Source: Nitratidesulfovibrio vulgaris str. Hildenborough
Lineage (GTDB): Bacteria; Desulfobacterota; Desulfovibrionia; Desulfovibrionales; Desulfovibrionaceae
Reading direction: 5' to 3'
DNA: 32,000 bases
Assembly (NCBI RefSeq): GCF_000195755.1
Contig: NC_002937.3
Coordinates: 3,450,001 to 3,482,000, forward strand
The translations under genes and the position numbers were made by a program. The notes under the pieces were generated by a model. The model saw nothing but the letters and a program-made list of their open reading frames with translations, had not been told where the DNA came from and searched no databases. Position 1 is the stretch's first letter. Each line of letters begins with the position of its first letter. This document shows, in pieces, positions 3,870-32,000 of this stretch.

Positions 3870-4214
3870 GGCGCGCCTCCTGCTGGCAACTCTCCCGGTG
3901 CGCCGTGCGACAGACCGCAATGGCAGCGATACGACACCCCCTTCAGCAGGCACGCCCCAATCCGTTCGCGGAAGCGGGCCCGACGCACCGGGGCAGGCAC
4001 AGGAAGGCGGGGAGTCTCCGGCAGGGCGGCTACAGGACGCCGGATCATGTGACGACATATGCGGACTGGGCATGGGGGACCTCTTCGCGTATCGGGTGTG
4101 CGTGACCTCTATCCCTTATCCCTATACTGCAAGCCCGACCTGTTGTGAACGCATGGGCGATTGCCAACGCCCCATGCAGACGCTACCTTGCCGCCAAGCA
4201 TCACAGGAGCGACC

Positions 4215-13614: not shown

Positions 13615-14204
13615 GGTGTCTCCTCGTTGGGTGCACAGTATCCAGCAAGAGCGATGCCAGCAACCATAACCAGCCACCACGAAAGGGATTCCACCTCCGG
13701 CACTCCGTTCATCTGCCCCCCCGTCCGGCAAGGTGTCCGAATGATGACAACTGCCCCGATTCCCCCATCTCTCCCTGACCGGATGCGCCACAACCTGCGA
13801 CGTGCGGGGCTTCGATAGGCGATGACTACAGTCCCGCCCATGGCGCCCCCCCCTTGCACGTCGGCAGGGACCGCGCCGGGCCTCACGTCCGCCAGCCTTC
13901 GGGCCACTAGCGTCGAATGCGCCTTCGGCGCACCCTGTCGGGCCCCGGGGCTGCTGCGACACCGCCTCCTGACTGCGCAGCGTAAACGCTCATTTATTCG
14001 ATATTGCTAATCCAAGGACACCCTGCTGACTCCTATCATCTATTCATAGACAAAAATGTTACTAGATTCTCATATACAACGCGCTTAAAATACATTTATT
14101 GCCATTTTTGATATTCTGACATATTTCTCGGTTCCCGGCGACGGAATCTCCCGTCGTCGCACCACCACGGCCATGGGCCCGCACAGTCACCACGGAGAAC
14201 GCGC

Positions 14205-15332
14205 ATGTGTCGCCTGTTCGCCCTGACCTCCACATCCCCGGTCTCGCCCATGCTCGCCATCAATGCCCTCAATGTCATGAAGGAAGGGCACGATGGGTCG
14301 GGCGTGGGCCTGTATCTTTCGGGGCTTGAAGGTCCTTTCGCCGCCCACGAGGGGCGGCCCGTCCTTTCGGGCATCTTCACCGATGCCGGACGCAAGCGCC
14401 TTGACGCGCTCATGAAGGAGCGCGGCTTCCGCCCGGTGCACAGTCTTGAAATCCGCAAGACCGACCCGCCTGCGGGCACGCCGCGCCGGGGCATGTACCT
14501 TGCGCAGGTGTACGAACCCGCCCCGGCATGGGAAGAGCTTTCGGCCGCGCACCGCGCCGCCTCGCTGGTGGAGACGCGCGTCGCCATCCGCGAAGCCGGT
14601 GAAGAGAAGCGCGACATGATGGCCTTCTCCTTCTGGCCCGGTGTGGTGATGATCAAGGAGGTGGGCGACCCGCTCACCATCGGTCGCTGGCTCGACCTCG
14701 ACAGGAGCGACCTGCACGCGCGCCGCATCCTGTGTCAGGGCCGCCAGAACACCAACTACGCCATCAATCTCTATGCGTGCCACCCGTTCTTCATCGAAGG
14801 CGTGTGCACCATGACCAACGGCGAGAACACCGCCTTCGTGCCCATCCGCGAGTACCTCCAGACCCGCGGCATCCCCGGCTACATGGGCTACCAGTCCGAC
14901 TCCGAGGTATTCGCGCACATCCTGCACTTCACGCTCAGGCGTCTCGGTCTGCCGCTGGAGGCGTACAAGCACGTCATCACGCCCCTGCGCGGCGCGGAAC
15001 TGGCCGAACACCCCGACAGCGCCACGCTGACGCGGCTTCAGACCGTGTGCCGTCGCATGATCATCGACGGCCCCAACTGTGTCATCGGCGTCACGCCCGA
15101 GGGCACCATGTTCATGGTGCAGGACCGCAAGAAGCTGCGCCCCGGCGTGGTGGGCGGCAAGCCGGGCATCTACGCCTTCTCGTCGGAAATCTGCGGCCTC
15201 GACGCGGCCATCCCCGACCGCGACCCCGCGCTGGACTTCCAGCCCATGCATCTCGACACGGCCTACGTCAGGCCGGATTGTCAGGAGGTCACCGTATGCA
15301 GCCAGCTCAAGGCATTACCCCCTCGACCCTGA
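14205..15332 (+). CDS. Class-II (Ntn) glutamine amidotransferase, GltB domain-1-like subunit of a split glutamate synthase, 375 aa
   Basis: Met-Cys N-terminus (MCRLFAL...), typical of Ntn amidotransferases. Similar to archaeal-type GOGAT subunits. GGAGAA upstream of the ATG. Confidence 0.8.
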   Translation: MCRLFALTSTSPVSPMLAINALNVMKEGHDGSGVGLYLSGLEGPFAAHEGRPVLSGIFTDAGRKRLDALMKERGFRPVHSLEIRKTDPPAGTPRRGMYLAQVYEPAPAWEELSAAHRAASLVETRVAIREAGEEKRDMMAFSFWPGVVMIKEVGDPLTIGRWLDLDRSDLHARRILCQGRQNTNYAINLYACHPFFIEGVCTMTNGENTAFVPIREYLQTRGIPGYMGYQSDSEVFAHILHFTLRRLGLPLEAYKHVITPLRGAELAEHPDSATLTRLQTVCRRMIIDGPNCVIGVTPEGTMFMVQDRKKLRPGVVGGKPGIYAFSSEICGLDAAIPDRDPALDFQPMHLDTAYVRPDCQEVTVCSQLKALPPRP

Positions 15333-16930
15333 GCGTGAAGGACCTGCCATGGCAGGTCGAATGGGACAGGGCCACCTGTGCGCTGTGCGGTCGCTGTACC
15401 GCCGTGTGCCCGGTGAACGCCATCGAGCTTGGCGTGCATCGGCAGCGCATCGTCGACGCGCCCGTGGGCCTCGCCAAACGCCCGTCCAACGCGCACACCG
15501 TCTACCACGGCGTACGCCAGCGCACCGACGCGGCCTATGCCTGCGTGGGCTGCGGCATGTGCACCATGGTCTGCCCCAACAACGCCATCCGCCCCGTGCA
15601 TCAGGCCGAGGCCACCGCACTGCGCTTCCACAACAACCGTGGCGGACAGCCGCGCACCCGTGGCGGGCGACGCAACGACCCGCTGGGGCTGCTCGACCAG
15701 ATCAAATTCATCCGCATCTCCATGCTCACCGACCCGGCCCTCGATGCCGGACGGCACGAGTTCGAACTGCGCACCCTGCTGGGCCGCATCCTGCCCCCCG
15801 AAGAGGGCATGGCCGCGCTGCATGGCAACGGCTGGGTGCCGCCGGTGCGCGAAATCTACCCGCTGGTCATCGGCGGCATGAGCTTCGGCGCGCTCTCGCC
15901 CAACATGTGGGAAGGGTTGCAGATGGGCGTGGCCTACCTCAACGAGGAGATGGGCATGCCCGTGCGCATGTGCACCGGCGAGGGCGGCTGCCCCCCGCGC
16001 CTGTTGCGCTCGCGCTTCCTCAAGTACGTCATCCTCCAGATAGCCTCGGGCTACTTCGGCTGGGACGAGATACTCCACGCCATCCCCGAGATGAAGGAAG
16101 ACCCCTGCGCCATCGAGATCAAATACGGGCAGGGTGCCAAGCCCGGCGACGGAGGCCTGCTCATGTGGCACAAGGTCAACAAGCTCATCGCCTCAATCCG
16201 TGGCGTGCCCCCCGGCGTCTCGCTGCCGAGTCCGCCCACGCACCAGACCAAGTACTCCATCGAAGAGGCCGTGGCGAAGATGATCCAGTCCATGAGCATG
16301 GCCTGGGGCTTCCGCGTGCCCGTCTACCCCAAGATATCCGGCACCGCCACGGCACTGGCCGTGCTCAACAACCTCGTCCGCAATCCCTATGCGGCGGGGC
16401 TTGCCATCGACGGTGAGGACGGCGGCACGGGTGCGGCCTACAACATCTCCATGAACCACATGGGACACCCCATCGCCTCCAACATCCGCGACTGCTACAA
16501 CGCCCTCGCCGCGCAGGGCCGCCAGAACGAGATTCCCATCATGGCGGGCGGCGGCATCGGCAAGAACGGCAACCTCGCGCACAACGCCGCCGCGCTCATC
16601 ATGCTCGGCGCCAGCATGGTGCAGAGTGGCAAGTACATCATGCAGGCGGCTGCGGGCTGCGTCGGCTCGGAGGTCGACCGCTGCAACATCTGCAACATAG
16701 GCCGCTGCCCCAAGGGCATCACCTCGCAGGACCCGAGGGTGTACCGCCGCCTCGACCCCGAGAAGGTCGCCGAAAGGCTGGTGGACGTGTACCTCGCCTT
16801 CGACACCGAACTGAAGAAGGTGTTCGCGCCACTGGGCCGCTCCACATCGCTGCCCGTGGGCATGTCAGACGCCCTCGGCATCGCCGACCGCAATGCGGCG
16901 GAGAGGCTCGGCATCAGGTACGTCGTCTAG
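15296..16930 (+). CDS. Glutamate synthase FMN-binding (GltB domain-2-like) subunit with N-terminal 2x[4Fe-4S] ferredoxin domain, 544 aa
   Basis: CALCGRCTAVCP and CVGCGMCTMVCP, followed by the GOGAT core IGGMSFGALS...IEIKYGQGAKPGDGG...SPPTHQ...IMAGGGI. Track ORF 14732..16930 trimmed to the ATG at 15296, with AGGAGG 7 nt upstream. It overlaps the upstream gene by 37 nt. Confidence 0.85.
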   Translation: MQPAQGITPSTLSVKDLPWQVEWDRATCALCGRCTAVCPVNAIELGVHRQRIVDAPVGLAKRPSNAHTVYHGVRQRTDAAYACVGCGMCTMVCPNNAIRPVHQAEATALRFHNNRGGQPRTRGGRRNDPLGLLDQIKFIRISMLTDPALDAGRHEFELRTLLGRILPPEEGMAALHGNGWVPPVREIYPLVIGGMSFGALSPNMWEGLQMGVAYLNEEMGMPVRMCTGEGGCPPRLLRSRFLKYVILQIASGYFGWDEILHAIPEMKEDPCAIEIKYGQGAKPGDGGLLMWHKVNKLIASIRGVPPGVSLPSPPTHQTKYSIEEAVAKMIQSMSMAWGFRVPVYPKISGTATALAVLNNLVRNPYAAGLAIDGEDGGTGAAYNISMNHMGHPIASNIRDCYNALAAQGRQNEIPIMAGGGIGKNGNLAHNAAALIMLGASMVQSGKYIMQAAAGCVGSEVDRCNICNIGRCPKGITSQDPRVYRRLDPEKVAERLVDVYLAFDTELKKVFAPLGRSTSLPVGMSDALGIADRNAAERLGIRYVV

Positions 16931-17005
16931 CGGGCGGGCAGGTTCCCGGCCCCGCGCACCGGGCCGCTGGCGCACACGCGCCGCGGCAAACGCAAGCGGA
17001 GAAGC

Positions 17006-19339
17006 ATGATGTCCGGCAATGAAACGATCCGCATCGGCGGACTGGATAACGGAGAGCGCGTCTCGTCGCGCAGGCTCGAAGAGCGCATACAACAGGCCGT
17101 ACAGGATGGCGCGCGCACCATCGACATCGAGGCGGCAGGGCAGCACGGCATAGGCGGTCGCCTGTGGGTTGCCCGCACCGAACCCGTGCGCGTGACCGTG
17201 CGCGGCGCGGTGGGCCAGCGTCTCGGTTCCATGGGATGCGAAGGCACCAGCATAGAGGTCATGGGCCCCGCCTCCGAGGACGTGGGCTGGCTCAACGCCG
17301 GGGCCGACATCCTCATCCACGGCAACGTGGGCGGGGGCACGGCCAACGCCATGGCGCAAGGCCGCATCCGCGTGGGCGGCAACATCGGCTCGCGCGGCAT
17401 GACCATGACCAAGCAGAACCCGCGCTTCACCGCCCCCGAACTCTGGGTGCTGGGGAGCGTGGGCGACTATTTCGCCGAGTTCATGGCGGGCGGCACCGCC
17501 GTGGTCTGCGGGTTCAACGCACAGAACCCCGCCAACGTGCTGGGCTACCGCCCGTGCGTGGGCATGGTGGGCGGGCGCATCCTCGTGCGCGGTCCCTATG
17601 ACGGCTTCTCGCAGGCCGACGCGCGCCTCGACCCCATCGACGACGCCCTGTGGCAGTGGCTGGTGGACGGCCTTGCCGACTTCACCGCCGCCCTCGGCAA
17701 GCCCGAACTCGCCGCCGCGCTCTCGGTGCGTGAGGAGTGGCAGTGCATCGTGGCGCGCGGCCCCTACGAGAAGACGGGCAAGACCCGCCGCTCCATCTCC
17801 GACTTCCGCCGCAACGTGTGGGACCGAGAACTGGGCATGGGCGGTCTTGTGGGCGACCTGACGTCGCTCGACCGCAGCCCCATCCCGCTCATCACCACCG
17901 GCGAACTGCGCCGCTTCGTGCCCGTGTGGGAGAACGCCCGCTACGCGGCCCCTTGCCAGTCGAGTTGCCCCACGGGCATTCCCGTACAGGAACGGTGGCG
18001 GCTGGTGCGTGACGGACTCGTGGACGAGGCCGTGGACATGGCGCTGGCCTACACACCCTTTCCCGCCACTGTATGCGGCTACCTGTGCCCCAACCTCTGC
18101 ATGCAGGGCTGCACCCGCAACCTGCAACGCATGAAGCCCGTGGACGTGACCATGCTCGGCAAGGCCGGGGTGCGTTCCGACATACCGGCCCTGCCGCCCC
18201 TCACCGGGCAGCGCGTGGCCGTGGTGGGCGGCGGTGCGGCGGGCATCTCCGTGGCGTGGCAGTTACGGATGCGCGGCATCGAAGCCGTCATCCACGACAT
18301 GGAGCCTCTCCTCGGCGGCAAGATTGCCTCGGCCATTCCCGAAAGCCGCATCCCGCGCGAGGTTCTCGACGCTGAACTCGAACGCGTACGCAAGGTGCTG
18401 CCCCACATCCACCTGCACCGCAAGCTGACGAAGGACGACTTCGAACAGTTGCGCGCCGACTTCGACTTCGTGGTGCTGGCGACCGGGGCGAGCAAACCCC
18501 GTATGCTGCCCGTACCCGGCAGGGAGTTGGCGACCACGGCCCTCGACTTCCTGCGCGATGCCAAGTCCGGCAACGGCAAGCCCTGCAAGCGCGTGGTCAT
18601 CGTCGGCGCGGGCAACGTGGGATGCGACGTGGCCACCGAAGCCGCACGCCTCGGTGCCGAATCCATCACCCTCGTCGACATCCAGACCCCCGCCGCCTTC
18701 GGCAAGGAGCGCGACGAAGCCGAACATGTGGGTGCCACCTTCCGCTGGCCCTGCTTCACCCGCGAGGTGACCGCAGATGGGCTGGTGCTCACCACCGGCG
18801 AGCTCATCCCCGCCGACACGGTGGTCTTCTCCATCGGCGATGCGCCCGACCTCGACTACCTGCCCGACACCATCGCCACGGAACGCGGCTACGTCACGGT
18901 CAACGACCTTGGCCAGACCACCGACGCCCGCGTCTTCGCCATCGGCGACGTGGTGCGCCCCGGTCTGCTGACGCAGGCCATCGGCGCAGGTCGCAAGGCC
19001 GCCGGTGCCATCGCGGACATGGCAGAGGGCAAACGCCCCGTCTCCGACACCCGCGAGATGGTGGACACCGCCCGCATCAAGCTTGAATACTTCGACCCGC
19101 GCATCTCCGGCTTCGACGACCTCGAACGTTGCGGCGAAGCGTGTGTGAGTTGCGGCGCATGCCGCGACTGCGGCGTGTGCGAGACCATCTGCCCGCAGGG
19201 GGCCATCTCGCGCCGCGACCTCGGCGAAGGACGCTTCGAGATGACTGTGGACGGCGAACGATGCATCGGTTGCGGCTTCTGCGCCGGGGCGTGCCCGTGC
19301 GGCATCTGGAACCTCGTGGAGAACACGCCGCTGGAGTAG
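17006..19339 (+). CDS. Fusion protein: GXGXG-motif (GltB domain-3-like) + GltD-like FAD/NAD(P)H oxidoreductase + C-terminal 2x[4Fe-4S], 777 aa
   Basis: N-terminal repetitive GXGXG beta-helix region (GNVGGGTANAMAQGRIRVGGNIGSRG). Cys-rich APCQSSCPTG...CGYLCPNLCMQGC. Dinucleotide folds VAVVGGGAAGIS and VVIVGAGNVGCDVA. C-terminal CVSCGACRDCGVCETICP and CIGCGFCAGACP. Confidence 0.85.
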   Translation: MMSGNETIRIGGLDNGERVSSRRLEERIQQAVQDGARTIDIEAAGQHGIGGRLWVARTEPVRVTVRGAVGQRLGSMGCEGTSIEVMGPASEDVGWLNAGADILIHGNVGGGTANAMAQGRIRVGGNIGSRGMTMTKQNPRFTAPELWVLGSVGDYFAEFMAGGTAVVCGFNAQNPANVLGYRPCVGMVGGRILVRGPYDGFSQADARLDPIDDALWQWLVDGLADFTAALGKPELAAALSVREEWQCIVARGPYEKTGKTRRSISDFRRNVWDRELGMGGLVGDLTSLDRSPIPLITTGELRRFVPVWENARYAAPCQSSCPTGIPVQERWRLVRDGLVDEAVDMALAYTPFPATVCGYLCPNLCMQGCTRNLQRMKPVDVTMLGKAGVRSDIPALPPLTGQRVAVVGGGAAGISVAWQLRMRGIEAVIHDMEPLLGGKIASAIPESRIPREVLDAELERVRKVLPHIHLHRKLTKDDFEQLRADFDFVVLATGASKPRMLPVPGRELATTALDFLRDAKSGNGKPCKRVVIVGAGNVGCDVATEAARLGAESITLVDIQTPAAFGKERDEAEHVGATFRWPCFTREVTADGLVLTTGELIPADTVVFSIGDAPDLDYLPDTIATERGYVTVNDLGQTTDARVFAIGDVVRPGLLTQAIGAGRKAAGAIADMAEGKRPVSDTREMVDTARIKLEYFDPRISGFDDLERCGEACVSCGACRDCGVCETICPQGAISRRDLGEGRFEMTVDGERCIGCGFCAGACPCGIWNLVENTPLE

Positions 19340-19451
19340 CAGCCTCGAACGCCGCCGTGCCCGTGCCCAAGACGCTGGCACAGGTGTCCCGCCGCCACTG
19401 AACAGCCGCGGGGCACGCCACAGGACGCGACAGCGCCAGACGAACATGCAA

Positions 19452-19480
19452 GGCCCCCCGGACGACCGGGGGGCCTTTTA
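19452..19480 (+). terminator. Strong rho-independent terminator of the glutamate synthase operon
   Basis: GGCCCCCCGG-acga-CCGGGGGGCC followed by TTTTA. Confidence 0.8.
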
Positions 19481-19746
19481 CGTGACGCGACGCCACCGGC
19501 AGGTCGAATCCACTGCGGCAACAACGATGAGGCAAGCCATATCTCATAGGTGTGGCATTCTAGCCACTTGCCCCATGGCATAGCATCCCGGTCACATCGG
19601 ACACTCAGGCATGCTCTCACGATACGGCAGTAATCCGCGGACTCCCAACTACGTTCGAACCGACTCCTCCACATTGACAGCGCGTGCACCCGGTGGGCAT
19701 AGGATGGTATGGCCTCTTCATACCCATGTCGCAGCAAGGAGCACGC

Positions 19747-21390
19747 ATGAACGCCGCCACGCTTTTCGTCCGCTGTCTCGAAGCAGAGGGCGTCGACCAT
19801 ATCTTCGGCATCCCCGGCGAGGAGAATCTCGCCTTTCTCGAGGCCCTGCGTACCTCGTCCATCAGGCTCGTACTCACCCGCCACGAACAGGCGGCGGGCT
19901 TCATGGCAGCCACCTACGGCAGACTCACGGGACGCCCCGGCGTATGCCTCTCGACCCTCGGCCCCGGTGCCACCAATCTCGTCACCGCCGTGGCCTATGC
20001 ACGCCTCGGGGGTATGCCGCTCATCGTCATCACCGGGCAGAAGCCCATCAAGCACAGCAAGCAGGGGCGGTTCCAGATTCTCGATGTGGTGCGCATGATG
20101 GAACCCATCACCAAGTCGACCCGGCAGGTGGCTTCGGGTTCCGCCATCCCCTCGCTGGTGCGTGAGGCGTTCCGCCTTGCCGCCAAGGAGAAGCCCGGCC
20201 CCGTGCATATCGAACTGCCGGAGGACATCGCCGCCGAAGAGGTCGCCACCACACCCCACACCCCTTCGCTGGTTCGCCCTGCACAGGCCGACCCTGAACT
20301 CGTGGGCGAAGCCGCGCGACGCATCCGCAAGGCCAAACGCCCGCTGCTGCTCATGGCGGCAGGGGCCAACCGGCACGACGTATGCGGCCACCTGCGCCGC
20401 TTCATCGACACCACCGGCATGTTCTTCTTCTCCACCCAGATGGGGAAAGGGGCGGTCGACCAGCGGCACCCCCGGTCTCTCGGCACGGCGGCACTCTCTG
20501 ACCACGACTACCTGCACTGCGCCATCGAACGTGCCGACTGCATCGTCAACGTGGGGCACGACGTGGTGGAGAAGCCGCCCTTCTTCATGCACCGCGACGA
20601 CGGGCGCACCGTCATCCACGTGAACGTCTTCCCGGCGCAGGTCGATGACGTGTACTTCCCGCAGCTTGAGGTGGTGGGCGACATCGGCGAATCGCTGCAA
20701 CTCATGGCCGACATCGTCGGACGCTGCCCCGGCGCGGACGACGACTACCTCAGGCGCATCAAGGAACACATCGACGCCCACGTCTACGCCACCGGCCTCA
20801 CCAACTCCTTTCCGCCCACGCCTCAGAGCATCGTCAGCGAGGTGCGCGAAGCCATGCCCGAGAACGGCGTGCTGGCCCTCGACAACGGCATGTACAAGCT
20901 GTGGTTCGCCCGCAACTACCGCGCCTATGCCCCCAACACCCTGCTGCTGGACAACGCCCTCGCCACCATGGGGGCGGGCCTTCCCTCGGCCCTTGCCGTG
21001 GCCCTGCTGCGCCCCGGCACCCCCGTGGCGGCCCTGTGCGGCGACGGCGGGTTCATGATGAACTCGCAGGAACTCGAGACGGCGGTGCGCCTCGGCGTCG
21101 ACCTCACGGTCATGGTGCTGCGCGACGACGGCTACGGCATGATCAAATGGAAGCAGGCGGGCATGGAACTGCCCGTGCATGGTCTCGACTTCGGCAACCC
21201 CGACTTCGTGCGCTACGCCGAAAGCTACGGGGCCACGGGGCATCGCGTCTCAGCCCCTGACGGGCTGCGCCAGACCCTGCGCCGCTGCCTCGCCACGCCG
21301 GGCGTCCATCTCATCGAAGTCCCGGTGGACTACAGCGAGAACGAAAAGGTCTTCATCGAAGAACTCCGCAGCAAGACATGCCTGCTGTGA
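19747..21390 (+). CDS. Thiamine-diphosphate-dependent enzyme of the acetolactate synthase (AlsS-like) family, 547 aa
   Basis: N-terminal ThDP pyrimidine-binding domain (GIPGEENLAFLEAL, RHEQAAGFMAATYGRLTGRPGVCLSTLGPGATNL) and C-terminal ThDP-binding motif CGDGGFMMNSQELET. ATG at 19747 with AAGGAG 6 nt upstream. Confidence 0.85.
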   Translation: MNAATLFVRCLEAEGVDHIFGIPGEENLAFLEALRTSSIRLVLTRHEQAAGFMAATYGRLTGRPGVCLSTLGPGATNLVTAVAYARLGGMPLIVITGQKPIKHSKQGRFQILDVVRMMEPITKSTRQVASGSAIPSLVREAFRLAAKEKPGPVHIELPEDIAAEEVATTPHTPSLVRPAQADPELVGEAARRIRKAKRPLLLMAAGANRHDVCGHLRRFIDTTGMFFFSTQMGKGAVDQRHPRSLGTAALSDHDYLHCAIERADCIVNVGHDVVEKPPFFMHRDDGRTVIHVNVFPAQVDDVYFPQLEVVGDIGESLQLMADIVGRCPGADDDYLRRIKEHIDAHVYATGLTNSFPPTPQSIVSEVREAMPENGVLALDNGMYKLWFARNYRAYAPNTLLLDNALATMGAGLPSALAVALLRPGTPVAALCGDGGFMMNSQELETAVRLGVDLTVMVLRDDGYGMIKWKQAGMELPVHGLDFGNPDFVRYAESYGATGHRVSAPDGLRQTLRRCLATPGVHLIEVPVDYSENEKVFIEELRSKTCLL

Positions 21391-21407
21391 CGCGTGAAGG
21401 AGACACC

Positions 21408-22802
21408 ATGAGCAGCATCACCGTCCGCAACCCCTTCGACCTCTCCACCGTCGGCGAAGTGCCCCTCATGTCCGAAGCAGAGGCCTTCGCCGCACTTGAG
21501 CGCGCCCATGCCCTGCATGGCGACCCGGCGCACCGCATCCCCGCCCATGAACGTCTCGCCATCCTCGAACGGCTGGCGACGCTCATGCGTACCCACGCCG
21601 AAGCACTTGTGCGCGATGCCGTCCGCGAAGGCGGCAAACCATGGGCCGACAGCGTGGTGGAGGTGGAACGCGCCATCGACGGCGTGCGCTGGGCCGCGCG
21701 TGAACTGGCACAACTCGGCGGACGCGAGGTGCCCATGGGCCTTACCCCGGCCTCGGCAGGGCGGCTGGCCTTCACGGTACGCGAACCACGCGGGGTGGTG
21801 CTTGCCATCAGCGCGTTCAACCACCCGGTGAACCTCATCGTGCATCAGGCGGTTCCCGCATTCGCGGCGGGTTGCCCCGTTCTGGTCAAGCCCGCGTCGG
21901 CGACACCACTTTCGTGTCGCAACGTGCTGCGCCTCATGCACGAGGCCGGAGTGCCCGAAGCATGGGCCACCATGCTGCCCTGCGCCGCCGCCACGGCGGA
22001 GAAGCTGGTCGCCGACCCGCGCGTGGCCTTTCTCTCGTTCATCGGGTCGTCGCGTGTGGGCTGGCACCTGCGCTCGAAGCTGGCCCCCGGTGCCACCTGC
22101 GCACTGGAACACGGCGGGGCCGCCCCCGTCGTGCTGGACGCCAGCGCCGACCTTGACGCCGCACTCCCCCTGTTGCTCAAAGGCGGTTTCTACCATGCAG
22201 GGCAGGTATGCGTTTCGGTGCAGCGTGTCTTCGCCCCGCACGAAACGGCGCGCACGTTCGCCGAACGCCTTGCCGCAGCGGCGGCGCAACTGCCCACCGG
22301 CGACCCCATGCGACACGACACCGCAGTGGGGCCGCTCATCGACCCGCGAGAGGTGTCGCGCGTCCATGAATGGGTCGAGGAGGCACGGGCAGGCGGAGGC
22401 ACGGTGCTGTGCGGCGGTGCCCCCCTTTCGGAGACGCTATACTCCCCCACGGTGGTCTATGACCCGCCGCAGGGCTGTCGCCTTGCCCGCAACGAAGTGT
22501 TCGGCCCGGTGGTGGCGGTCTTCTCCACACGCGACCGCGACGAGGCCATCGCCCGCGCCAACGACGTGCCCTTCATCTTTCAGGCAGCGGTCTTCGCACG
22601 CGATGTGGATGTGGCCCTCGACACCGCGCGGCGGCTGAACGCCACCGGGGTCATGGTCAACGACCACACGGCCTTCCGTGTGGACTGGATGCCCTTCGGC
22701 GGGCGTGGGGAATCGGGCATGGGTACGGGCGGCATAGGCCCCGCCATGCACGAAATGACGACGGAGAAGCTCATCGTGCTGCGTTCACCCGCATGGGCAT
22801 GA
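21408..22802 (+). CDS. Aldehyde dehydrogenase family protein, 464 aa
   Basis: ALDH landmarks: FNHPVNL, ALEHGGAAP (catalytic Glu region), GQVCVSVQRVF (catalytic Cys), NEVFGPV. ATG at 21408 with AAGGAG upstream, 17 nt after the ThDP enzyme stop. Confidence 0.85.
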   Translation: MSSITVRNPFDLSTVGEVPLMSEAEAFAALERAHALHGDPAHRIPAHERLAILERLATLMRTHAEALVRDAVREGGKPWADSVVEVERAIDGVRWAARELAQLGGREVPMGLTPASAGRLAFTVREPRGVVLAISAFNHPVNLIVHQAVPAFAAGCPVLVKPASATPLSCRNVLRLMHEAGVPEAWATMLPCAAATAEKLVADPRVAFLSFIGSSRVGWHLRSKLAPGATCALEHGGAAPVVLDASADLDAALPLLLKGGFYHAGQVCVSVQRVFAPHETARTFAERLAAAAAQLPTGDPMRHDTAVGPLIDPREVSRVHEWVEEARAGGGTVLCGGAPLSETLYSPTVVYDPPQGCRLARNEVFGPVVAVFSTRDRDEAIARANDVPFIFQAAVFARDVDVALDTARRLNATGVMVNDHTAFRVDWMPFGGRGESGMGTGGIGPAMHEMTTEKLIVLRSPAWA

Positions 22803-25986: not shown

Positions 25987-26769
25987 TCAGGCGCGGCGGG
26001 TACGGCGTGCCGGGACTGGGCCACCCGTCTTGACCGGGACGGTACGCTTGCGCCTGCGTCCGAGAATGGCAAGAAGCGGACGCGCCTTGGCGAACAGCGT
26101 CTCCTCCACGGTCTCGTCGATCATGAGCGAATAGAGGTCTCGCCCCATATGACGCCGTACGCGCATCCCCATCTCGCGAAGGCGTGCCGCACAGTCTGCG
26201 ACGCACAGCCCCGGCGACACCGGAGGTACATTCTGGTGCGCCCTGCCGACCGGTAGCGGACGGGCTCCATCAGCCTCCTGTCCGGCATGATGCGCAGCAT
26301 GGTGTCCGGGGAGAGGCACGATGCCATCATCCCGGCTGCCGACCGAGGTCGCCGCAAGCAGCCGCGCTATGCCTGCCGCTGGCATACCCTGCGGCACCAT
26401 CAGAACGTGCGCGTCCGTGCCGGACTCCACATCCATGCCGGAAGCGACCCCCAGAATGATGAGGTCTGCGCCAATCTCGCGCACGGTCCGGTCGACCACC
26501 ACCGGAAGGTCGCCTTCACGGTAGAGACAGTCGAGGTCGAAACGGTAGCGCTCGGCAAGGAGCAAGGCCTCGGCAAGCAGGCTTGCGGCACGGCGACGTA
26601 TGGGCGCACATCCCGTCGCGAACCCCACGCCCGGCTGCCGTTCAGCCCCGACGGCCAGTGCCGTCACCCTGCACTTGCGCCGTGACGCGAAGGCGAGGGC
26701 CTGCTCCAGTACCACCAGAGCATGGCCCCCGTCGACGAGAGGTACGAGGATGCGATCAAGCCTGACCAT
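25987..26769 (-). CDS. Hypothetical protein with degenerate universal-stress-protein-like N-domain and basic C-terminal tail, 260 aa
   Basis: MVRLDRILVPLVDGGHALVVLEQALAFA...ADLIILGVASG resembles a Usp alpha/beta core. The start ATG at 26769 overlaps the TauE gene end by 14 nt. The C-terminal half is low-complexity, so its extent is uncertain. Confidence 0.55.
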   Translation of the reverse strand: MVRLDRILVPLVDGGHALVVLEQALAFASRRKCRVTALAVGAERQPGVGFATGCAPIRRRAASLLAEALLLAERYRFDLDCLYREGDLPVVVDRTVREIGADLIILGVASGMDVESGTDAHVLMVPQGMPAAGIARLLAATSVGSRDDGIVPLPGHHAAHHAGQEADGARPLPVGRAHQNVPPVSPGLCVADCAARLREMGMRVRRHMGRDLYSLMIDETVEETLFAKARPLLAILGRRRKRTVPVKTGGPVPARRTRRA

Positions 26770-27826
26770 GCGCCCCGGCGACGCCGCCGGCACGTTCCGC
26801 GGCACGCCCCCTCCACATGGAACCGAGGATGATGACCGCCCCGATGAACAGCGCGAAGCACATGCACACGAAGCTGACCCGACCGAGGATGGTCAGTGTC
26901 GATGCCGACAGGTCCATAAGGCCCAGCTTCACGAGATAGCCCGGCAGGGCGATACAGCGGCTCACCGCCACGATGAGCATGATGGTGGCCATGACGACCT
27001 TGATCATGTGTTCGCGGACATAGGTGGTGCCGATGGCGCCAAGCTGCACGCCCAGCAGCGAACCGCCGAGGATGATGAGCACCAGACGGATGTCCACAAG
27101 CCCGTGCATGGCCCAGTTGATCGACCCCCCGAGACCCATGATGAACGCCACGACCAGTTCCGTGGCGGAAGCCATGATGCCGGGAACACCCAGAACATAG
27201 ATCATGCCGGGAACGCCCACGAAACCGCCCACGGCGATGGTAGCGGCGAGCAACCCCGTGGCGAGGCCCACCGGAACGGTGAACCAGAATGAGATGCGTA
27301 TGCCCGAGGTCTTGAACGTGACCATGGGCGGCAGTTCTATCTGTTGCAGGCGACGGGCCAGCGGGGGCGTTCCCTCGGGGATATGGCATCGCGCGCAACG
27401 AATCGCGTCCTGCATCACGTAGCCGCCCACGATGACGAGGACCGCCACGAACGACAGGCTCACATAGAGGTCCGAACCGGCCTGACCCCATGTCTGAAGC
27501 ACCATCTGCTGGATGCGGATGCCGCCCTGTACCCCCACGGCCGCCGAGATGGCCATGTACAGGCCCAGCTTGAGGTCCACCTGCCCGTACTTGAAGCGCT
27601 TGATGGTGCCCACGAGGGCCTTGGGGAACTTGTGGCACATGTTGCTGGCCACAGCCACCGTACCGGGTACCCCAAGGCTCATCATGCCGGGCGTGAGCAC
27701 GAACGCCCCCCCGGAACCGATGAAGCCGCTGACCAGACCGCCGATGAAGCCGACGATGAAGAGGAACGCCACCGAGGCGGCATTGAGTTCGATGAAGCGC
27801 GAAGGGTCGAGCGCGAGAATATCCAT
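26756..27826 (-). CDS. TauE/SafE (TSUP, DUF81) family anion exporter, 356 aa
   Basis: Two homologous 4-TM halves with glycine-rich motifs (GFIGGLVSGFIGSGGAFVLTPGMM and ATGLLAATIAVGGFVGVPGMIYVLG). ATG at 27826 with AGGAG 7 nt upstream. Confidence 0.85.
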   Translation of the reverse strand: MDILALDPSRFIELNAASVAFLFIVGFIGGLVSGFIGSGGAFVLTPGMMSLGVPGTVAVASNMCHKFPKALVGTIKRFKYGQVDLKLGLYMAISAAVGVQGGIRIQQMVLQTWGQAGSDLYVSLSFVAVLVIVGGYVMQDAIRCARCHIPEGTPPLARRLQQIELPPMVTFKTSGIRISFWFTVPVGLATGLLAATIAVGGFVGVPGMIYVLGVPGIMASATELVVAFIMGLGGSINWAMHGLVDIRLVLIILGGSLLGVQLGAIGTTYVREHMIKVVMATIMLIVAVSRCIALPGYLVKLGLMDLSASTLTILGRVSFVCMCFALFIGAVIILGSMWRGRAAERAGGVAGAHGQA

Positions 27827-27839
27827 GCCGATGCTCCTG

Positions 27840-28133
27840 TCATGCCTTCACGGTGGCGCGTGCCGAAGGGCGTGCCACCGTGGTTTCTGCGGCCTTGCGG
27901 GCTTGCGGGCGCGCATTCACTCCGAGGACGCTCCACAGGTCGCTGGCGAACGTGCCATGGACGTACGAGAACGCGAACACCGTCGCTATGGGGCCTGCGG
28001 CCCACAACGACCCGCGGGCGAACATGGACGTGATGACTTCGGCGTGGGTGAACACCGCCGCATACATGGCGACGGTCAACAGACCGAAGACGGTCATGCG
28101 TCCCACGGGTTTACGGTCAGTCTTTGCAGCCAT
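27840..28133 (-). CDS. Small two-TM membrane protein, 97 aa
   Basis: ATG at 28133 with AAGGGAGAG upstream. Its stop is 13 nt before the TauE start. Hydrophobic segments VFGLLTVAMYAAVF and LWAAGPIATVFAFSYV. Confidence 0.6.
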   Translation of the reverse strand: MAAKTDRKPVGRMTVFGLLTVAMYAAVFTHAEVITSMFARGSLWAAGPIATVFAFSYVHGTFASDLWSVLGVNARPQARKAAETTVARPSARATVKA

Positions 28134-28194
28134 TGACTCTCTCCCTTGGTTTGCCCGCGCTGCGGGTCATGCCTACGGAGGGGCACAAGCCCTC

Positions 28195-28758
28195 CTAGTC
28201 GACCGTGAACAGGGCCAAAGGCATCCGGCCCTGCAATCGCAAGCCCTCTTCAGGCTCGCTCAAGACCATCTCCACACGTCCCAGCGACCGGGTCATGCGG
28301 GTGATGGCGTCTCCAATCTCCGCGAAACACACTTCGTGGCCTGCCGGCACCCCGCACGCCCGGGCGGCTTCCAGCCAGTAGCGGGCCGAAACCCCAGCCT
28401 GTGCGGTGTAGGCCTCTCGTGTGCTGTCCCCTGCCTCTGCCGGCCCTACGGTCAGGAAGGTCAGCGCGGCATCCATGCGACCCGCCAGCGAGATGGCGTA
28501 CCCCGCAAGCCGCGCCGAAAAACCCGCGCCATGTCCCACGACCAGCAGGCGCTTGCGCCCCTGTCCCTCGCGGCGCATGACCGCCCCGGCAAGCAGCATC
28601 TCCCCCGCCTCGGCAAGGGCGATGGCCTCCGCGTAGTCGGCCAGACGCTCTTCGATGGCGTTGACGCGTCCTGCGCGTACGCCGTCGGGCACGTCACGGG
28701 CGCCTCGACGCAACAATGAAAACCACTTCGGTCTCATCCCTGACTCCTGAAATCCCAT
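28195..28758 (-). CDS. Hypothetical protein with Usp-like core, 187 aa (alternative start ATG 28737, 180 aa)
   Basis: KRLLVVGHGAGFSARLAGYAISLAGRMDAALTFLTV resembles the first strand-helix-strand of Usp folds. The ATG at 28758 shares a base with the upstream stop (TGATG). The ATG at 28737 has AGGAG 6 nt upstream. Confidence 0.6.
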   Translation of the reverse strand: MGFQESGMRPKWFSLLRRGARDVPDGVRAGRVNAIEERLADYAEAIALAEAGEMLLAGAVMRREGQGRKRLLVVGHGAGFSARLAGYAISLAGRMDAALTFLTVGPAEAGDSTREAYTAQAGVSARYWLEAARACGVPAGHEVCFAEIGDAITRMTRSLGRVEMVLSEPEEGLRLQGRMPLALFTVD

Positions 28759-28937
28759 CAGACGCGCTGCCGGGGTGCAGGACGGGAGGTCACCGTCTTG
28801 CCTGCCACCGGGGTCGGGCGCCGGTCTTGCCGGGTTTCAAGCGAACGGACGAGATAGGCGGCCTCCGTCTTCTGGTCACGTTCTGCGAAAGCCACCGCGG
28901 CGAAGAGCGTCTCAACGGAATGGCGGATGGTTCCCAT
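28758..28937 (-). CDS. Small basic hypothetical protein, 59 aa, first gene of the TauE operon
   Basis: ATG at 28937 (MGTIRHSVETLFAAV...) with GGGAGAA about 6 nt upstream, and a sigma54-like element about 40 nt upstream. The longer track ORF (to 29084) would start inside a strong hairpin. Confidence 0.4.
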   Translation of the reverse strand: MGTIRHSVETLFAAVAFAERDQKTEAAYLVRSLETRQDRRPTPVAGKTVTSRPAPRQRV

Positions 28938-28975
28938 TTTGCTTCTCCCGGCTTCATGTTTTTTGTGAGAGCCAT

Positions 28976-28991
28976 AACAAGCCCCGTGCCA
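28976..28991 (-). promoter_or_regulatory. Candidate sigma54 (-24/-12) promoter of the TauE/Usp-like operon
   Basis: The minus strand reads TGGCACGgggcTTGTT. The -24 element is perfect and the spacing is correct, but the -12 GC is GT. The predicted start is about 30 nt upstream of the ATG at 28937. Confidence 0.4.
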
Positions 28992-29054
28992 AGCGCGATT
29001 CCGATCACAACCATTCAAAATGATGAGACATTCACTGCACGGATCTCCACAGCG

Positions 29055-29088
29055 CAAAAAGCCTCGTGTTGCGATATGCAACACGAGG
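29055..29088 (-). promoter_or_regulatory. 11-bp-arm inverted repeat CCTCGTGTTGC-gatat-GCAACACGAGG; either an activator-binding site or a minus-strand intrinsic terminator
   Basis: Perfect arms at 29062-29072 and 29078-29088. On the minus strand the stem is followed by CTTTTTG. It lies 71-97 bp upstream of the sigma54-like element, in an AT-rich divergent intergenic region. Confidence 0.5.
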
Positions 29089-29216
29089 CCACTTCAAAGG
29101 CACAATACTACTTGCTTTTCACAAGGTTAGGCTGAAAAATACACACATGCTGCATAATGCAACACCAGAGCAGGATGCAGCAGACGGCAACACCGGGCAT
29201 GGAGGTAGCGAACGGC

Positions 29217-31265
29217 ATGATCTTCTTCAGGAAACTCATCGAACCCGGCTGCGCCCCGGAAGAGACAGCGGAAGACCCTACCACGCTTCGGGGCAAGGTC
29301 GCCGCAGCGAAACTCCCCGAAGACGCGCAGCGGGCCGCAGAGGCCGAAATCGCGCGCATGGAGAAGACCGACCCCTCGGTCGCCGAATATGCCATCGCCC
29401 TCGGCTACGTGGAGTGCCTGCTGTCACTGCCATGGTCGGACATGGCCCCCGCGTCGTTCGACCTCCATGGCGCCGCCCGCGTCTTCGACGCGAGTCATGC
29501 GGGACTGGGACAGGTTCGCGAACGGGTGCTGGAGCATCTCGCCGCCCACGCCCTCGGGGCATCACGCCCCTTCTCGCTGCTGGTGGTGGATGACGAACCC
29601 ATAGCGCGGGCGAACCTCGAACTCGTCCTGCGGCGCGAGGGGCACCATGTCGAGGTTGCCGCCAACGGGGAGGAGGCGTTGCGACGTTTCGACGGGCAGG
29701 AGTTCGACCTCGTCGTCTCCGACCTCAAGATGGACACCATGGACGGCCAGCAACTGCTCGAGGCGATACGCGAACGGTCGCCCGAGACGCAGTGCATCAT
29801 CGTCACCGGATTCGCCACCGTCGACAGTGCCGTCCGGGCCATGCGCTCGGGTGCCGTGCACTATCTCACCAAGCCCATCGACCTTGACGACCTGCGCGCT
29901 GCCGTGGCCGACGTGCTGCGCGGCCGCCGGGCACGCTACCGGATGCGCGCCCCCCTGCTGTGCTTCGTGGGCCCGCCCGGCGTGGGCAAGACATCGGTGG
30001 GGCAGGCCATCGCCAAGGCCATGAACCGCCCCTTCGTGCGCCTGTCGCTGGCCGACCTGCGCGACGAGGCCGAACTGCGCGGACACCGGCGCACCTACGC
30101 GGGCGCCATGCCCGGGCGCATCATGCAGGCCCTGCGCACGGCCGGAGTGCGCAACCCCGTCTTCATGCTCGACGAGATGGACAAGATGGGGCAGGACGCC
30201 CGTAGCGACCCCGCCATGGCCCTTCTCGAACTGCTCGACCCCGAGCAGAACGACCGTTTCCTCGACCGCTACGTGGACCTTCCCTTCGACCTTTCGGAGG
30301 TCATGTTCATCGCCACGGCCAACGACACCTCGCGTATGCGCGGACCACTGCTCGACAGGCTCGAGGTGGTGCCCTTCGCCGGGTACTCCGAAGACGAGAA
30401 GGCCGACATCGCCTCACGCTTCCTGCTGCCGCGCCAACTGCGCGAGCACGGGCTCGTGCACCCGCGCCCCGTGGTCGCGGACGAGGCCCTGCGCCGCATC
30501 GTACGTGACTATACCGACGAGGCGGGCGTGCGCGGGCTCGAGCGTGAACTGGCCCGACTGTGCCGCAAACTCGCACGCCTGCACATGGAGGGGCACGCCC
30601 CACTCCCCGCCGGACTGGACGCGGAGCAGGTCACCGCGCTTCTCGGCCCCGCCCGCTACAACCACGACAGGACGGGCGGCGGGCAGCACACGGGCCGAGC
30701 CACCGGGCTTGTCTGGTCGGAGAAGGGCGGCGAGGTCATCTTCGTGGAGGTCTCGACCATGGGGGGCTCGGGCCAGCTCATCCTCACCGGTTCGCTGGGT
30801 GACGTACTCAAGGAATCGGCCCGCATCGCCCTGAGCCACCTGCGCAGCACCCCCGACGTGTTCGGCCTGCGCGCCGTCCCGTTCGACAGGCTCGACATCC
30901 ACATCCACATCCCGGCGGGCGACGTGGCCAAGGACGGCCCCTCTGCGGGGGTGACCATCGCCGCCGCGCTGGTCTCGCGCCTTGCGGGCAGACCCGCCCG
31001 CGCCGATGTGGCCCTCTCGGGCGAACTATCGCTGGGCGGCAGCCTGCTGCCCGTGAGCGGCATCCGCGAGAAAGTCCTCGCCGCGGCGCGCGGCGGCGCG
31101 CGCACCGTCATCCTGCCCCGGGCCAACGCCCCTGACGTGGCCAACCTGCGAGCCACGGTTCAACGCCTGCCGCGCATCGAACTGGTCGGCAGCGTTTCAG
31201 ATGCGCTCGAAATCGTCCTTGCCCCTGCCGCGCAGCCCGCGACAAAGGGAGGCCTCGACGCATGA
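29217..31265 (+). CDS. lon: Lon-family (S16) AAA+ protease with an internal CheY-like receiver (REC) domain and no PUA-like N-domain, 682 aa
   Basis: aa 30-115: Lon N-terminal helical remnant (KLPEDAQRAAEAEIARMEKTDPSVAEYAIALGYVECLLSLPWS, HAGLGQVRERVLEHL). aa 121-236: REC (LLVVDDEP, DLVVSDLKMDTMDG, IIVTG, YLTKP). Walker A GPPGVGKT and Walker B FMLDEMDK. Protease Ser in KDGPSAGVT and Lys in GIREKVLAA. Start chosen at ATG 29217, with GGAGGT 10 nt upstream. Confidence 0.85.
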   Translation: MIFFRKLIEPGCAPEETAEDPTTLRGKVAAAKLPEDAQRAAEAEIARMEKTDPSVAEYAIALGYVECLLSLPWSDMAPASFDLHGAARVFDASHAGLGQVRERVLEHLAAHALGASRPFSLLVVDDEPIARANLELVLRREGHHVEVAANGEEALRRFDGQEFDLVVSDLKMDTMDGQQLLEAIRERSPETQCIIVTGFATVDSAVRAMRSGAVHYLTKPIDLDDLRAAVADVLRGRRARYRMRAPLLCFVGPPGVGKTSVGQAIAKAMNRPFVRLSLADLRDEAELRGHRRTYAGAMPGRIMQALRTAGVRNPVFMLDEMDKMGQDARSDPAMALLELLDPEQNDRFLDRYVDLPFDLSEVMFIATANDTSRMRGPLLDRLEVVPFAGYSEDEKADIASRFLLPRQLREHGLVHPRPVVADEALRRIVRDYTDEAGVRGLERELARLCRKLARLHMEGHAPLPAGLDAEQVTALLGPARYNHDRTGGGQHTGRATGLVWSEKGGEVIFVEVSTMGGSGQLILTGSLGDVLKESARIALSHLRSTPDVFGLRAVPFDRLDIHIHIPAGDVAKDGPSAGVTIAAALVSRLAGRPARADVALSGELSLGGSLLPVSGIREKVLAAARGGARTVILPRANAPDVANLRATVQRLPRIELVGSVSDALEIVLAPAAQPATKGGLDA

Positions 31266-32000
31266 GACCTCCCCTTTTCGGCACGCTCCGCGCCAACCTC
31301 CGGCAGCTTGTGATGGCGGGCATCGCCCTCTCCATTCTCGGCATCAGCGTACTTGGCGGCATGTCATACTCCTACCTGCTGCAACTGGATGACGCGCTTG
31401 GTCTTGCCGAGGTGGTAGACGACCTCAGCAGCGACATCCTCGAGATACGCCGATATGAGAAGAACTACCTTCTCTACGTCATGGAGGAGGACTACACCGA
31501 GAACCTCGCCTTCATCGAACGCGCCCTCGGCGTCACGAACGTCATCCTGCCCCCCGACGGCACGGGGATGCTTGGCACCGACGAACAGGGCAGGCACGCC
31601 ATCGTCGCCCTGCGCCAGCAACTGCACGGCTACCGCGCCACCATCACGCGGCTGGAACAGCTGCGGCGGCAAGGCGACAACCGGCAGGCAGACTCGCTGC
31701 TCAACGACCTGCGCGAAGAGGGGAAGCGCCTCGTGGAGGGCGCACGGCAAATCGCAGCCTACCAGCGGTCGCGCATCCTCGGCATGGTCTCGAAGCTCAA
31801 GCAGCAGCTGCTCATCTCCATCCTCGGCTTTCTCGCCGTGGCCGTGTTCTTCTCATGGCTGGTGGGACGCAGGCTTCTGGGGGCCTTCACCCTCATCGAG
31901 AACGCCACCCGGGGCATCGTGCAGGGCGACTTCAAGCCGTTGCCCCTTCCGGACAGCCGCGACGAGTCACGCAGCGTCGTCAAGGCACTCAATCACATGA
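31262..32000 (+). CDS. Membrane sensor protein with HAMP domain (probable histidine kinase), 5-prime partial; runs off the window
   Basis: Not in the supplied ORF track because it has no stop in the window. My own translation from ATG 31262 gives 246 codons without a stop: MRPPLFGTLRANLRQLVMAGIALSILGISVLGG (TM1), a ~140-aa helical sensor region (LEIRRYEKNYLLY...), LLISILGFLAVAVFFSWLVG (TM2), then RRLLGAFTLIENATRGIVQGDFKPLPLP..SRSVVKALNHM (HAMP). The ATG overlaps the lon stop (ATGA). Confidence 0.75.
   Translation, partial: MRPPLFGTLRANLRQLVMAGIALSILGISVLGGMSYSYLLQLDDALGLAEVVDDLSSDILEIRRYEKNYLLYVMEEDYTENLAFIERALGVTNVILPPDGTGMLGTDEQGRHAIVALRQQLHGYRATITRLEQLRRQGDNRQADSLLNDLREEGKRLVEGARQIAAYQRSRILGMVSKLKQQLLISILGFLAVAVFFSWLVGRRLLGAFTLIENATRGIVQGDFKPLPLPDSRDESRSVVKALNHM

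Follow-up and report, generated by a model that had tools for sequence, protein, structure and literature searches.

AAA+ proteolysis is normally controlled by adaptors, substrate tags or allosteric ligands, and the question raised by the locus described here is whether a Lon protease may also be switched by a receiver domain (REC) built into its own chain. The locus lies in a stretch of 32,000 nucleotides from Nitratidesulfovibrio vulgaris str. Hildenborough (contig NC_002937.3, positions 3,450,001 to 3,482,000), which is called the window below and to which all nucleotide coordinates refer unless stated otherwise. In this window the gene DVU3303 encodes a LonA-type protease with an inserted REC, here called REC-Lon, and it is followed by the genes of a sensor histidine kinase (DVU3304) and a sigma54-dependent activator (DVU3305). 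We consider it probable that DVU3303 is a specialised LonA paralogue which serves a branched two-component system as its second response regulator, with phosphorylation of Asp169 most likely being activating.

Both the architecture and the idea of phosphorylation gating are already known for this exact gene, as Rajeev et al. 2011 (Genome Biol 12:R99, PMC3333781) described DVU3303-3305 as a three-component system and proposed phosphorylation-dependent proteolysis. An initial annotation of the window, made from the sequence alone, had presented REC-Lon as an architecture lacking a characterised precedent. This holds in so far as our literature search found no biochemically characterised REC-Lon, whereas the unrecognised status that it implied does not stand, DVU3303 having been discussed since 2011. 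Our literature search on REC-Lon returned the D. vulgaris Hildenborough papers and unrelated work only, and a paper on D. alaskensis G20 mutants leaves REC-Lon unmentioned. New in this work are the exact insertion point, the kinship and co-variation of the two receivers and the conservation of the module across phyla.

Domain anatomy and insertion point

Domain boundaries were determined by the profile-HMM (hidden Markov model) searches that had been suggested together with the initial annotation. Pfam coordinates of REC-Lon are given in the numbering of the 702-residue open reading frame (ORF), and residue names in that of the 682-residue protein. Four domains were found, i.e. Response_reg (PF00072) at 142-250 (E-value 3e-30, 105 bits versus a cutoff of 30.2), AAA (PF00004) at 268-405 (E-value 8e-24), Lon_lid (PF22667) at 430-480 (E-value 4e-17) and Lon_C (PF05362) at 488-688 (E-value 1.3e-61). 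The LON/PUA-like N domain (PF02190) gave no match in REC-Lon at E <= 0.1. Neither PF00158 nor HTH_8 was matched in REC-Lon by Pfam, and the protein does not qualify as a member of the NtrC family. It scored 586.4 bits against the LonA equivalog model TIGR00763 and 503.6 bits against NF008053, which is under the cutoff in both cases (608.05 and 891, respectively). Of the features that define LonA, REC-Lon thus has the AAA+ module with its lid and the S16 dyad, and is without the PUA-like N domain and an equivalog-level score. As a receiver it has the Pfam score, the (beta-alpha)5 fold and the set of acidic pair, Asp, Thr, aromatic residue and Lys.

The insertion point was read from a phmmer alignment to E. 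coli Lon (6u5z, E-value 3e-144), in which query residues 17-111 correspond to E. coli Lon 247-341 and query residues 242-648 to 346-751. Because the alignment is split in this way, the REC is a true insertion and the equivalent of E. coli Lon 1-246 is absent. The missing part, about 246 first residues of canonical LonA, comprises the PUA-like domain and a long helix and serves LonA in substrate binding and oligomerisation. A receiver of about 130 residues is spliced into a loop of four residues that joins the three-helix bundle, at its last helix, to AAA+ strand beta1.

In nucleotide coordinates, all on the forward strand, the leader and the remnant of the LonA N-region cover 29217-29564 (residues 1-116), where the leader of residues 1-18 is disordered and the three-helix bundle is the counterpart of E. 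coli Lon 247-341. The inserted REC follows at 29571-29930 (residues 119-238) with the codon of the acceptor Asp169 at 29721-29723. The AAA+ module and Lon lid are encoded by 29940-30596 (residues 242-460) and include Walker A (29970-29993), the pore-loop Tyr294 (30096-30098) and Walker B (30165-30185). The S16 Lon protease domain is found at 30618-31220 (residues 468-668), with the codons of Ser576 and Lys619 at 30942-30944 and 31071-31073.

These results bear out what the initial annotation had read from the protein. The LonA-type core is in place with GPPGVGKT (252-259), MLDEMDK (317-323), S576 in DGPSAG and K619 in GIREK. Only the helical tail of the N-region was said to be kept, and PF02190 is indeed unmatched while the alignment starts at E. 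coli Lon 247. The complete receiver placed between this tail and the AAA+ module is recovered by PF00072 and by the modelled fold, and D125/D126, D169 in VVSDLKM, T197 and K219 in LTKP are at exactly the positions given, all of them invariant in 95 homologues.

An AlphaFold2 (AF2) monomer model of REC-Lon had a mean pLDDT (predicted local distance difference test) of 82.5 and a pTM (predicted template modelling score) of 0.70. N-terminal helices were modelled at 21-30, 35-49, 56-70, 83-93 and 98-116, followed by an intact (beta-alpha)5 REC at 120-238 with linkers of 3 and 8 residues on its sides. The Lon body of the model superimposed on Y. pestis Lon (6on2) with a target-normalised template modelling score of 0.90. 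In the CheY fold the N- and C-terminus are neighbours on the side facing away from the phosphorylation site, and the inserted receiver would for this reason point its active site outward.

Reading frame, start and identity of the gene

An exact-sequence look-up found the product to be 100% identical to AAS97772.1/Q725X1, i.e. DVU3303 of Nitratidesulfovibrio (Desulfovibrio) vulgaris Hildenborough, which the original TIGR annotation named 'ATP-dependent protease La, truncation'. A separate canonical lon is present in the same genome as DVU1337.

The ORF list of the window gives REC-Lon as 29157-31265 (forward strand), or 702 residues counted from the first ATG. We find the start at 29217 (coding sequence 29217-31265, 682 residues) better supported by the sequence than the alternative ATG at 29157, because a GGAGG is found at 29201-29205 ahead of ATG 29217, the N-termini of REC-Lon homologues read MIFFRK or MFFRK, the form re-called by RefSeq (WP_014524642.1) has 682 residues, and a palindrome lies over the upstream ATG.

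Two artefacts were considered and rejected. A LON N domain hidden in frame upstream of REC-Lon is excluded, since the upstream frame ends at TGA 29133 and a divergent gene also lies on that side. Misassembly is ruled out by the presence of the same protein on at least 23 independent contigs and by the recurrence of the architecture in all 120 best database matches.

Conservation, distribution and synteny

The best 120 database matches were 54-99% identical to REC-Lon. Residue conservation was evaluated on an alignment of 95 homologues of 54-84% identity. Invariant in all 95 were the REC residues D125, D126, D169, T197, Y216 (switch) and K219, Walker A (GPPGVGKT, 252-259), Walker B (D319/E320), the pore-loop Tyr294 and the Ser-Lys dyad of Ser576 and Lys619.

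The survey of the architecture and of its sensor neighbour proposed with the initial annotation was carried out as a synteny scan over species-representative genomes, which is a sample and not a census. It found at least 13 REC-Lon loci, those listed being from Desulfovibrionales, Desulfocurvus, Desulfobulbales, Desulfocapsaceae, Syntrophobacteraceae, Desulfomonilaceae, Desulfonema and two Nitrospirota (Thermodesulfovibrionales). In 12 of the 13 loci listed REC-Lon has a kinase and activator pair no more than 7 kb away, with variable position and strand, and a TauE gene and a 97-residue gene are directly upstream and divergent in 11 of the 13. In L018 and L019, both Desulfocapsaceae, the kinase and activator pair is upstream, and the divergent TauE and 97-residue genes are missing beside REC-Lon. 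By these comparisons the module is kept across Thermodesulfobacteriota and Nitrospirota, with the REC-Lon architecture at 47-85% identity. Orthologues in other Desulfovibrio species, Thermodesulfovibrio, Thioalkalivibrio and Dechloromonas were already listed by Rajeev et al. (PMC3333781).

The size of the family is easily overestimated. A count of 329 matches (E <= 1e-30) was rejected as family size, being inflated because proteins with several RECs are included; only about 20 matches spanning the full length in a single stretch are REC-Lon. An exhaustive search of representatives likewise gave about 20 clusters at 50% identity, many of which are fragments. Short variants without the protease domain (P0146, P0162 and P0177) were found to be contig-end fragments or frameshifted calls and not a new architecture. 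P0146 and P0177 carry Arg/Gly/Pro-rich or unrelated C-terminal tails where the protease domain is expected, and these are apparently gene-call artefacts.

Kinase DVU3304 and activator DVU3305

The stop codon of REC-Lon overlaps the start of DVU3304 in an ATGA at 31262-31265, as initially annotated. The window holds the 5' part of the kinase gene (31262-32000, forward strand), i.e. 246 of its 492 codons; the complete protein of 492 residues was taken from a contig (L001/L002) whose 12.8-kb overlap with the window is 100% identical. DVU3304 had been described as a HAMP sensor with two transmembrane segments and the likely cognate kinase. Hydrophobic segments are found at 13-36 and 179-206, and Pfam identifies HisKA and HATPase_c, so both the membrane topology and the kinase assignment are retained; the HAMP match by contrast is sub-threshold (20.3 bits versus a cutoff of 25, E-value 7e-4).

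Beyond the end of the window, again after an ATGA overlap, lies DVU3305, an NtrC-type sigma54-dependent response regulator of 451 residues with Pfam matches to REC, Sigma54_activat (PF00158) and HTH_8. The order of the operon is therefore REC-Lon, kinase, activator, with ATGA at both junctions. This third coupled gene escaped the initial annotation because the window ends inside the kinase gene, and it replaces the simple pair of kinase and protease by a system that appears to be branched, with one kinase and two receivers. Since the kinase has a conventional partner in DVU3305, the protease would be the second branch beside it.

Relationship of the two receivers

The REC of REC-Lon and that of DVU3305 are 51% identical. 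In a tree with receivers from 13 genomes, 173 of 200 bootstraps united Lon RECs and activator RECs to the exclusion of NtrC, NtrC1 and CheY, and the two receivers of the D. vulgaris locus appear to be each other's closest relatives. Reciprocal monophyly of Lon RECs and activator RECs was unsupported (3 of 200 bootstraps each). In the same tree the Lon receivers of L016 and L017 (Nitrospirota) group with the activator receivers of the same lineage and not with other Lon receivers, which could be due to co-evolution, to gene conversion or to weak resolution of a domain of 120 residues.

Co-variation was evaluated by comparing Lon and activator RECs within each of the 13 genomes with pairs re-paired between genomes. 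Mean identity over the domain was 49.3% within genomes and 45.8% after re-pairing (p = 5e-5). The excess was largest at alpha1 (59.3% versus 51.3%, p = 5e-5) and beta5-alpha5 (51.1% versus 43.2%, p = 1.5e-4), and the rest of the domain gave 47.0% versus 45.2% (p = 0.01). In known kinase-regulator complexes alpha1 and beta5-alpha5 are the surfaces that touch the kinase, and an excess at these places is what one would expect to see if a single kinase had to be matched by both receivers. A kinase gene nearby together with a matching specificity surface points to DVU3304 as the putative cognate kinase of both; the support is indirect and consists of the gene neighbourhood and of co-variation between the two RECs.

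Divergent operon and intergenic control region

The intergenic region between REC-Lon and the divergent operon DVU3302-3298 is 280 bp long. As judged from ORFs, called genes and Pfam matches, this operon covers 25987-28937 on the reverse strand and starts with a 59-residue ORF (28758-28937), followed by genes for a 187-residue protein (28195-28758), a 97-residue membrane protein (27840-28133), the TauE/SafE anion permease DVU3299 (26756-27826, Pfam TauE E-value 2e-36) and a Usp-domain protein (25987-26805, Pfam Usp E-value 6e-6). The initial annotation had left out the link between the REC-Lon locus and this sigma54-driven operon.

A sigma54-type promoter, TGGCACGGGGCTTGTT, is present at 28976-28991 on the reverse strand, directed toward the divergent operon and 39 nt upstream of ATG 28937. 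Elements of this kind were found on the reverse strand in eight loci, at the same position in L007, L008, L011-L014 and L016. The palindrome TGTTGC-N5-GCAACA at 29067-29083, a candidate site for DVU3305, is enclosed by a perfect inverted repeat of 11+5+11 at 29062-29088. A second palindrome, TGCTGC-N5-GCAACA, at 29148-29164 overlaps the upstream ATG at 29157. At about 80 and 160 bp upstream of the sigma54 promoter, the two are placed as enhancers typically are. Copies of the palindrome were seen in six loci; it precedes REC-Lon in L007, L009 (two copies), L010, L011 and L017. Palindrome and reverse-strand sigma54-like element recur across two phyla. Ahead of REC-Lon itself the sole sigma54 candidate, GGCAC-N8-TTGC (29099-29116, forward strand), was rejected with a spacer 3 nt too long. 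A scan of 28700-29300 gave no sigma70 consensus, and Rfam no structured RNA match in the window.

The published data agree with this organisation. DNA affinity purification with chip read-out (DAP-chip) placed DVU3305 on the shared intergenic region, and the operons were reported to be induced at high pH, by heat shock and in stationary phase (PMC3333781). In the study of Kazakov et al. 2015 (PMC4641369), DVU3302-3298 are credited with a sigma54 promoter and DVU3303-3305 with none. In identity, gene order, Pfam domains, promoter and palindromes the locus matches the described three-component system.

A weaker DVU3305 DAP-chip peak is reported at genome positions 1411925-1412128, 36 bp upstream of clpX (DVU1336) (PMC3333781 supplement). 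This peak hints that DVU3305 may also touch another AAA+ protease gene.

Other genes in the window

On the reverse strand the window further contains genes for an HtrA/DegP-like serine protease with Trypsin_2 and two PDZ domains (2517-4070), an L-lactate permease (9535-11163, PF02652, E-value 2e-174) and a family-2 glycosyltransferase (11929-13959). A run of redox and 2-oxoacid genes is found at 14732-22799 on the forward strand, consisting of a Glu_synthase plus 4Fe-4S protein (14732-16927), a GXGXG/Pyr_redox_2/Fer4 protein (17006-19336), a TPP-dependent (thiamine pyrophosphate-dependent) enzyme (19684-21387) and an aldehyde dehydrogenase (21378-22799).

Evaluation of the proposed mechanism

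Gating by REC domains is known from NtrC-type activators, where it acts on the AAA+ ring, and from CheB, where it acts on the hydrolase domain. In the branched system that we favour, DVU3304, with two transmembrane segments, a periplasmic domain and a HAMP-like linker, would phosphorylate two receivers. DVU3305 would bind the TGTTGC-N5-GCAACA palindromes and fire the sigma54 promoter from which the divergent TauE/Usp operon is transcribed, and in the other branch Asp169 of REC-Lon would be phosphorylated, most likely turning ATPase and protease on. The switch may operate via changed contacts between RECs, or between REC and AAA+ module, that determine ring assembly or access to the pore, whose entry portal is the three-helix bundle. 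A single signal, probably an oxyanion or general stress, would set off both transcription and targeted proteolysis. In this scheme the architecture, the conserved residues, the synteny, the binding of DVU3305 to DNA and the mutant phenotype common to the three genes are established, and we infer the phosphotransfer to Asp169, the sign of the regulation and the substrates. Activation is the most likely sign because the REC directly precedes the AAA+ module as in NtrC-family activators, and because the receivers structurally nearest to it are of the NtrC1 type, which gates the assembly of the ring. From the loss of the N domain one would expect a narrow, dedicated substrate range.

The genetic data come from Trotter et al. 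2023 (Front Microbiol 14:1095191, PMC10102598), where DVU3303, DVU3304 and DVU3305 have pairwise cofitness above 0.9. Each of the three is detrimental in 6.25 mM chlorate, so that its disruption is beneficial, and under chlorate the cells require the TauE-family gene DVU3299 (fitness -2.3). Together with the co-variation at alpha1 and beta5-alpha5, the cofitness makes the adjacent kinase a plausible cognate partner, as had been suggested in the initial annotation.

A more specific version of the scheme we put forward tentatively and with somewhat less than even confidence. Here the receiver stands in place of the lost N domain, and pairing of RECs driven by phosphorylation would assemble or open the hexamer. 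With the same kinase driving the sigma54 activator, one oxyanion or stress signal would be converted into transcription of the anion-permease operon and specific degradation, the candidate substrates being components of the operon or the pathway. REC-Lon would then be the first AAA+ protease for which a histidine kinase is the direct switch.

Several points weigh against the branched, phosphorylation-activated scheme. The literature search yielded no phosphotransfer, ATPase or proteolysis experiment for any REC-Lon, and the AF2 model is that of a monomer and carries no information on the hexamer. The co-variation test comprises 13 genomes only and has a small excess outside the interface too (p = 0.01). 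The cofitness of lon with kinase and activator could in part be polarity, since lon stands at the head of the operon. No sigma54 promoter is present ahead of the lon operon, and the scheme does not account for the operon's own regulation. Finally, the signs under chlorate are opposite, loss of the signalling genes being beneficial and loss of DVU3299 detrimental (PMC10102598), and a simple picture of TauE activation is for this reason incomplete.

This last observation also feeds the reverse reading of the switch, in which phosphorylation turns the protease off, unphosphorylated REC-Lon is active, and stress, besides inducing the TauE operon through the activator, stabilises the substrates. 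Architecture and conservation leave the sign of regulation unfixed, and the opposite behaviour of signalling genes and TauE gene hints at an antagonistic element in the circuit. In the NtrC/NtrC1 family and in CheB-type regulators, however, phosphorylation relieves inhibition or promotes assembly, and lon mutants resemble kinase and activator mutants instead of opposing them (PMC10102598), which makes an off-switch unlikely. The same mutants bear on the possibility that docking or substrate recognition is the main task of the REC, which would replace the N domain, pair with the kinase or with DVU3305 through its REC, and deliver this partner to the Lon pore as proteolytic negative feedback. 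Such a role would suit the absence of the PUA-like substrate-binding domain and the close paralogy of the two RECs (about 50% identity), which co-vary in beta5-alpha5, part of the usual REC dimer surface; REC proteins are moreover Lon substrates elsewhere, e.g. FixT (PMC7078487). Destruction of the activator would, however, predict the opposite fitness pattern for lon, against the cofitness above 0.9, unless the insertions are polar, and pure docking would not need the phospho-acceptor set and switch residues that are invariant in the 95 sequences. We give docking as the main role of the REC little weight.

It is quite improbable that REC-Lon is chiefly a phosphate sink tuning the phosphorylation of DVU3305, with a constitutive protease. 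Where one kinase serves two receivers, the second is often a sink, e.g. CheY1/CheY2, and a shared specificity surface is what a competitor needs, but a single-domain REC would suffice for this, and a precise insertion in an intact ATPase-protease kept over two phyla argues for coupling. The label 'truncation' given by TIGR would suggest a decayed gene without function, in line with the missing N domain and a TIGR00763 score of 586 versus 608 bits. We attach almost no credence to decay, which is already refuted by conservation: all catalytic residues are invariant, and the architecture is found at 47-85% identity across Thermodesulfobacteriota and Nitrospirota. The AF2 model is also confident, and transposon mutants have a phenotype (PMC10102598).

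With architecture and gating idea published in 2011, the value of the system now lies in biochemistry and not in the discovery of the architecture. If the Lon ring is wired to the receiver, REC-Lon would be a compact and genetically tractable case of kinase-gated proteolysis, and, because the receiver replaces the N domain, a natural test of the role of the LonA N domain. The host is a model sulfate reducer with mutant libraries, DAP-chip data and fitness data, and the link to an anion permease that matters to the cell during chlorate stress bears on souring control.

Comparison with known systems

The locus analysed here is the same as DVU3303-3305 of D. vulgaris Hildenborough; flanking genes and the divergent DVU3302-3298 operon match, and no difference was found. 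The studies of 2011 and 2023 provide DNA-binding and fitness data for it, without protease biochemistry. With canonical LonA (6u5z, 6on2 and M. taiwanensis 4ypl/7fd4) REC-Lon has in common the three-helix bundle, the AAA+ module, the lid and the S16 Ser-Lys dyad. It differs from these in having no equivalent of E. coli Lon 1-246 and in carrying the REC of about 130 residues between E. coli positions 341 and 346.

The closest relatives of the Lon REC in the PDB and NCBIfam are receivers of the NtrC family (Aquifex NtrC1 1ny5/4l4u, DctD and E. coli NtrC). Here too a REC is directly N-terminal to a ring-forming AAA+ module, and phosphorylation controls ring assembly. In contrast to the NtrC family, the AAA+ module of REC-Lon is of the Lon type, has neither GAFTGA loop nor helix-turn-helix domain, and is joined to the REC by a linker of 8 residues and not by a coiled-coil helix.

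CpdR (Caulobacter ClpXP) and RssB (E. coli ClpXP) have the logic in common that two-component phosphorylation acts on AAA+ proteolysis, and the comparison with CpdR made in the initial annotation is an analogy only. The NCBIfam models of CpdR and RssB match the Lon REC with weak similarity at the level of the REC, far under their cutoffs. Those two act as proteins of their own, binding ClpX and bringing it substrates, whereas the REC of REC-Lon is covalently inserted and so is no stand-alone adaptor. CheB, a REC-methylesterase, resembles REC-Lon as a fusion of REC and hydrolase in which phosphorylation is expected to relieve inhibition. In CheB, however, the REC is N-terminal and the output a single-domain esterase, whereas in REC-Lon it is inserted in a predicted ATP-dependent hexameric machine.

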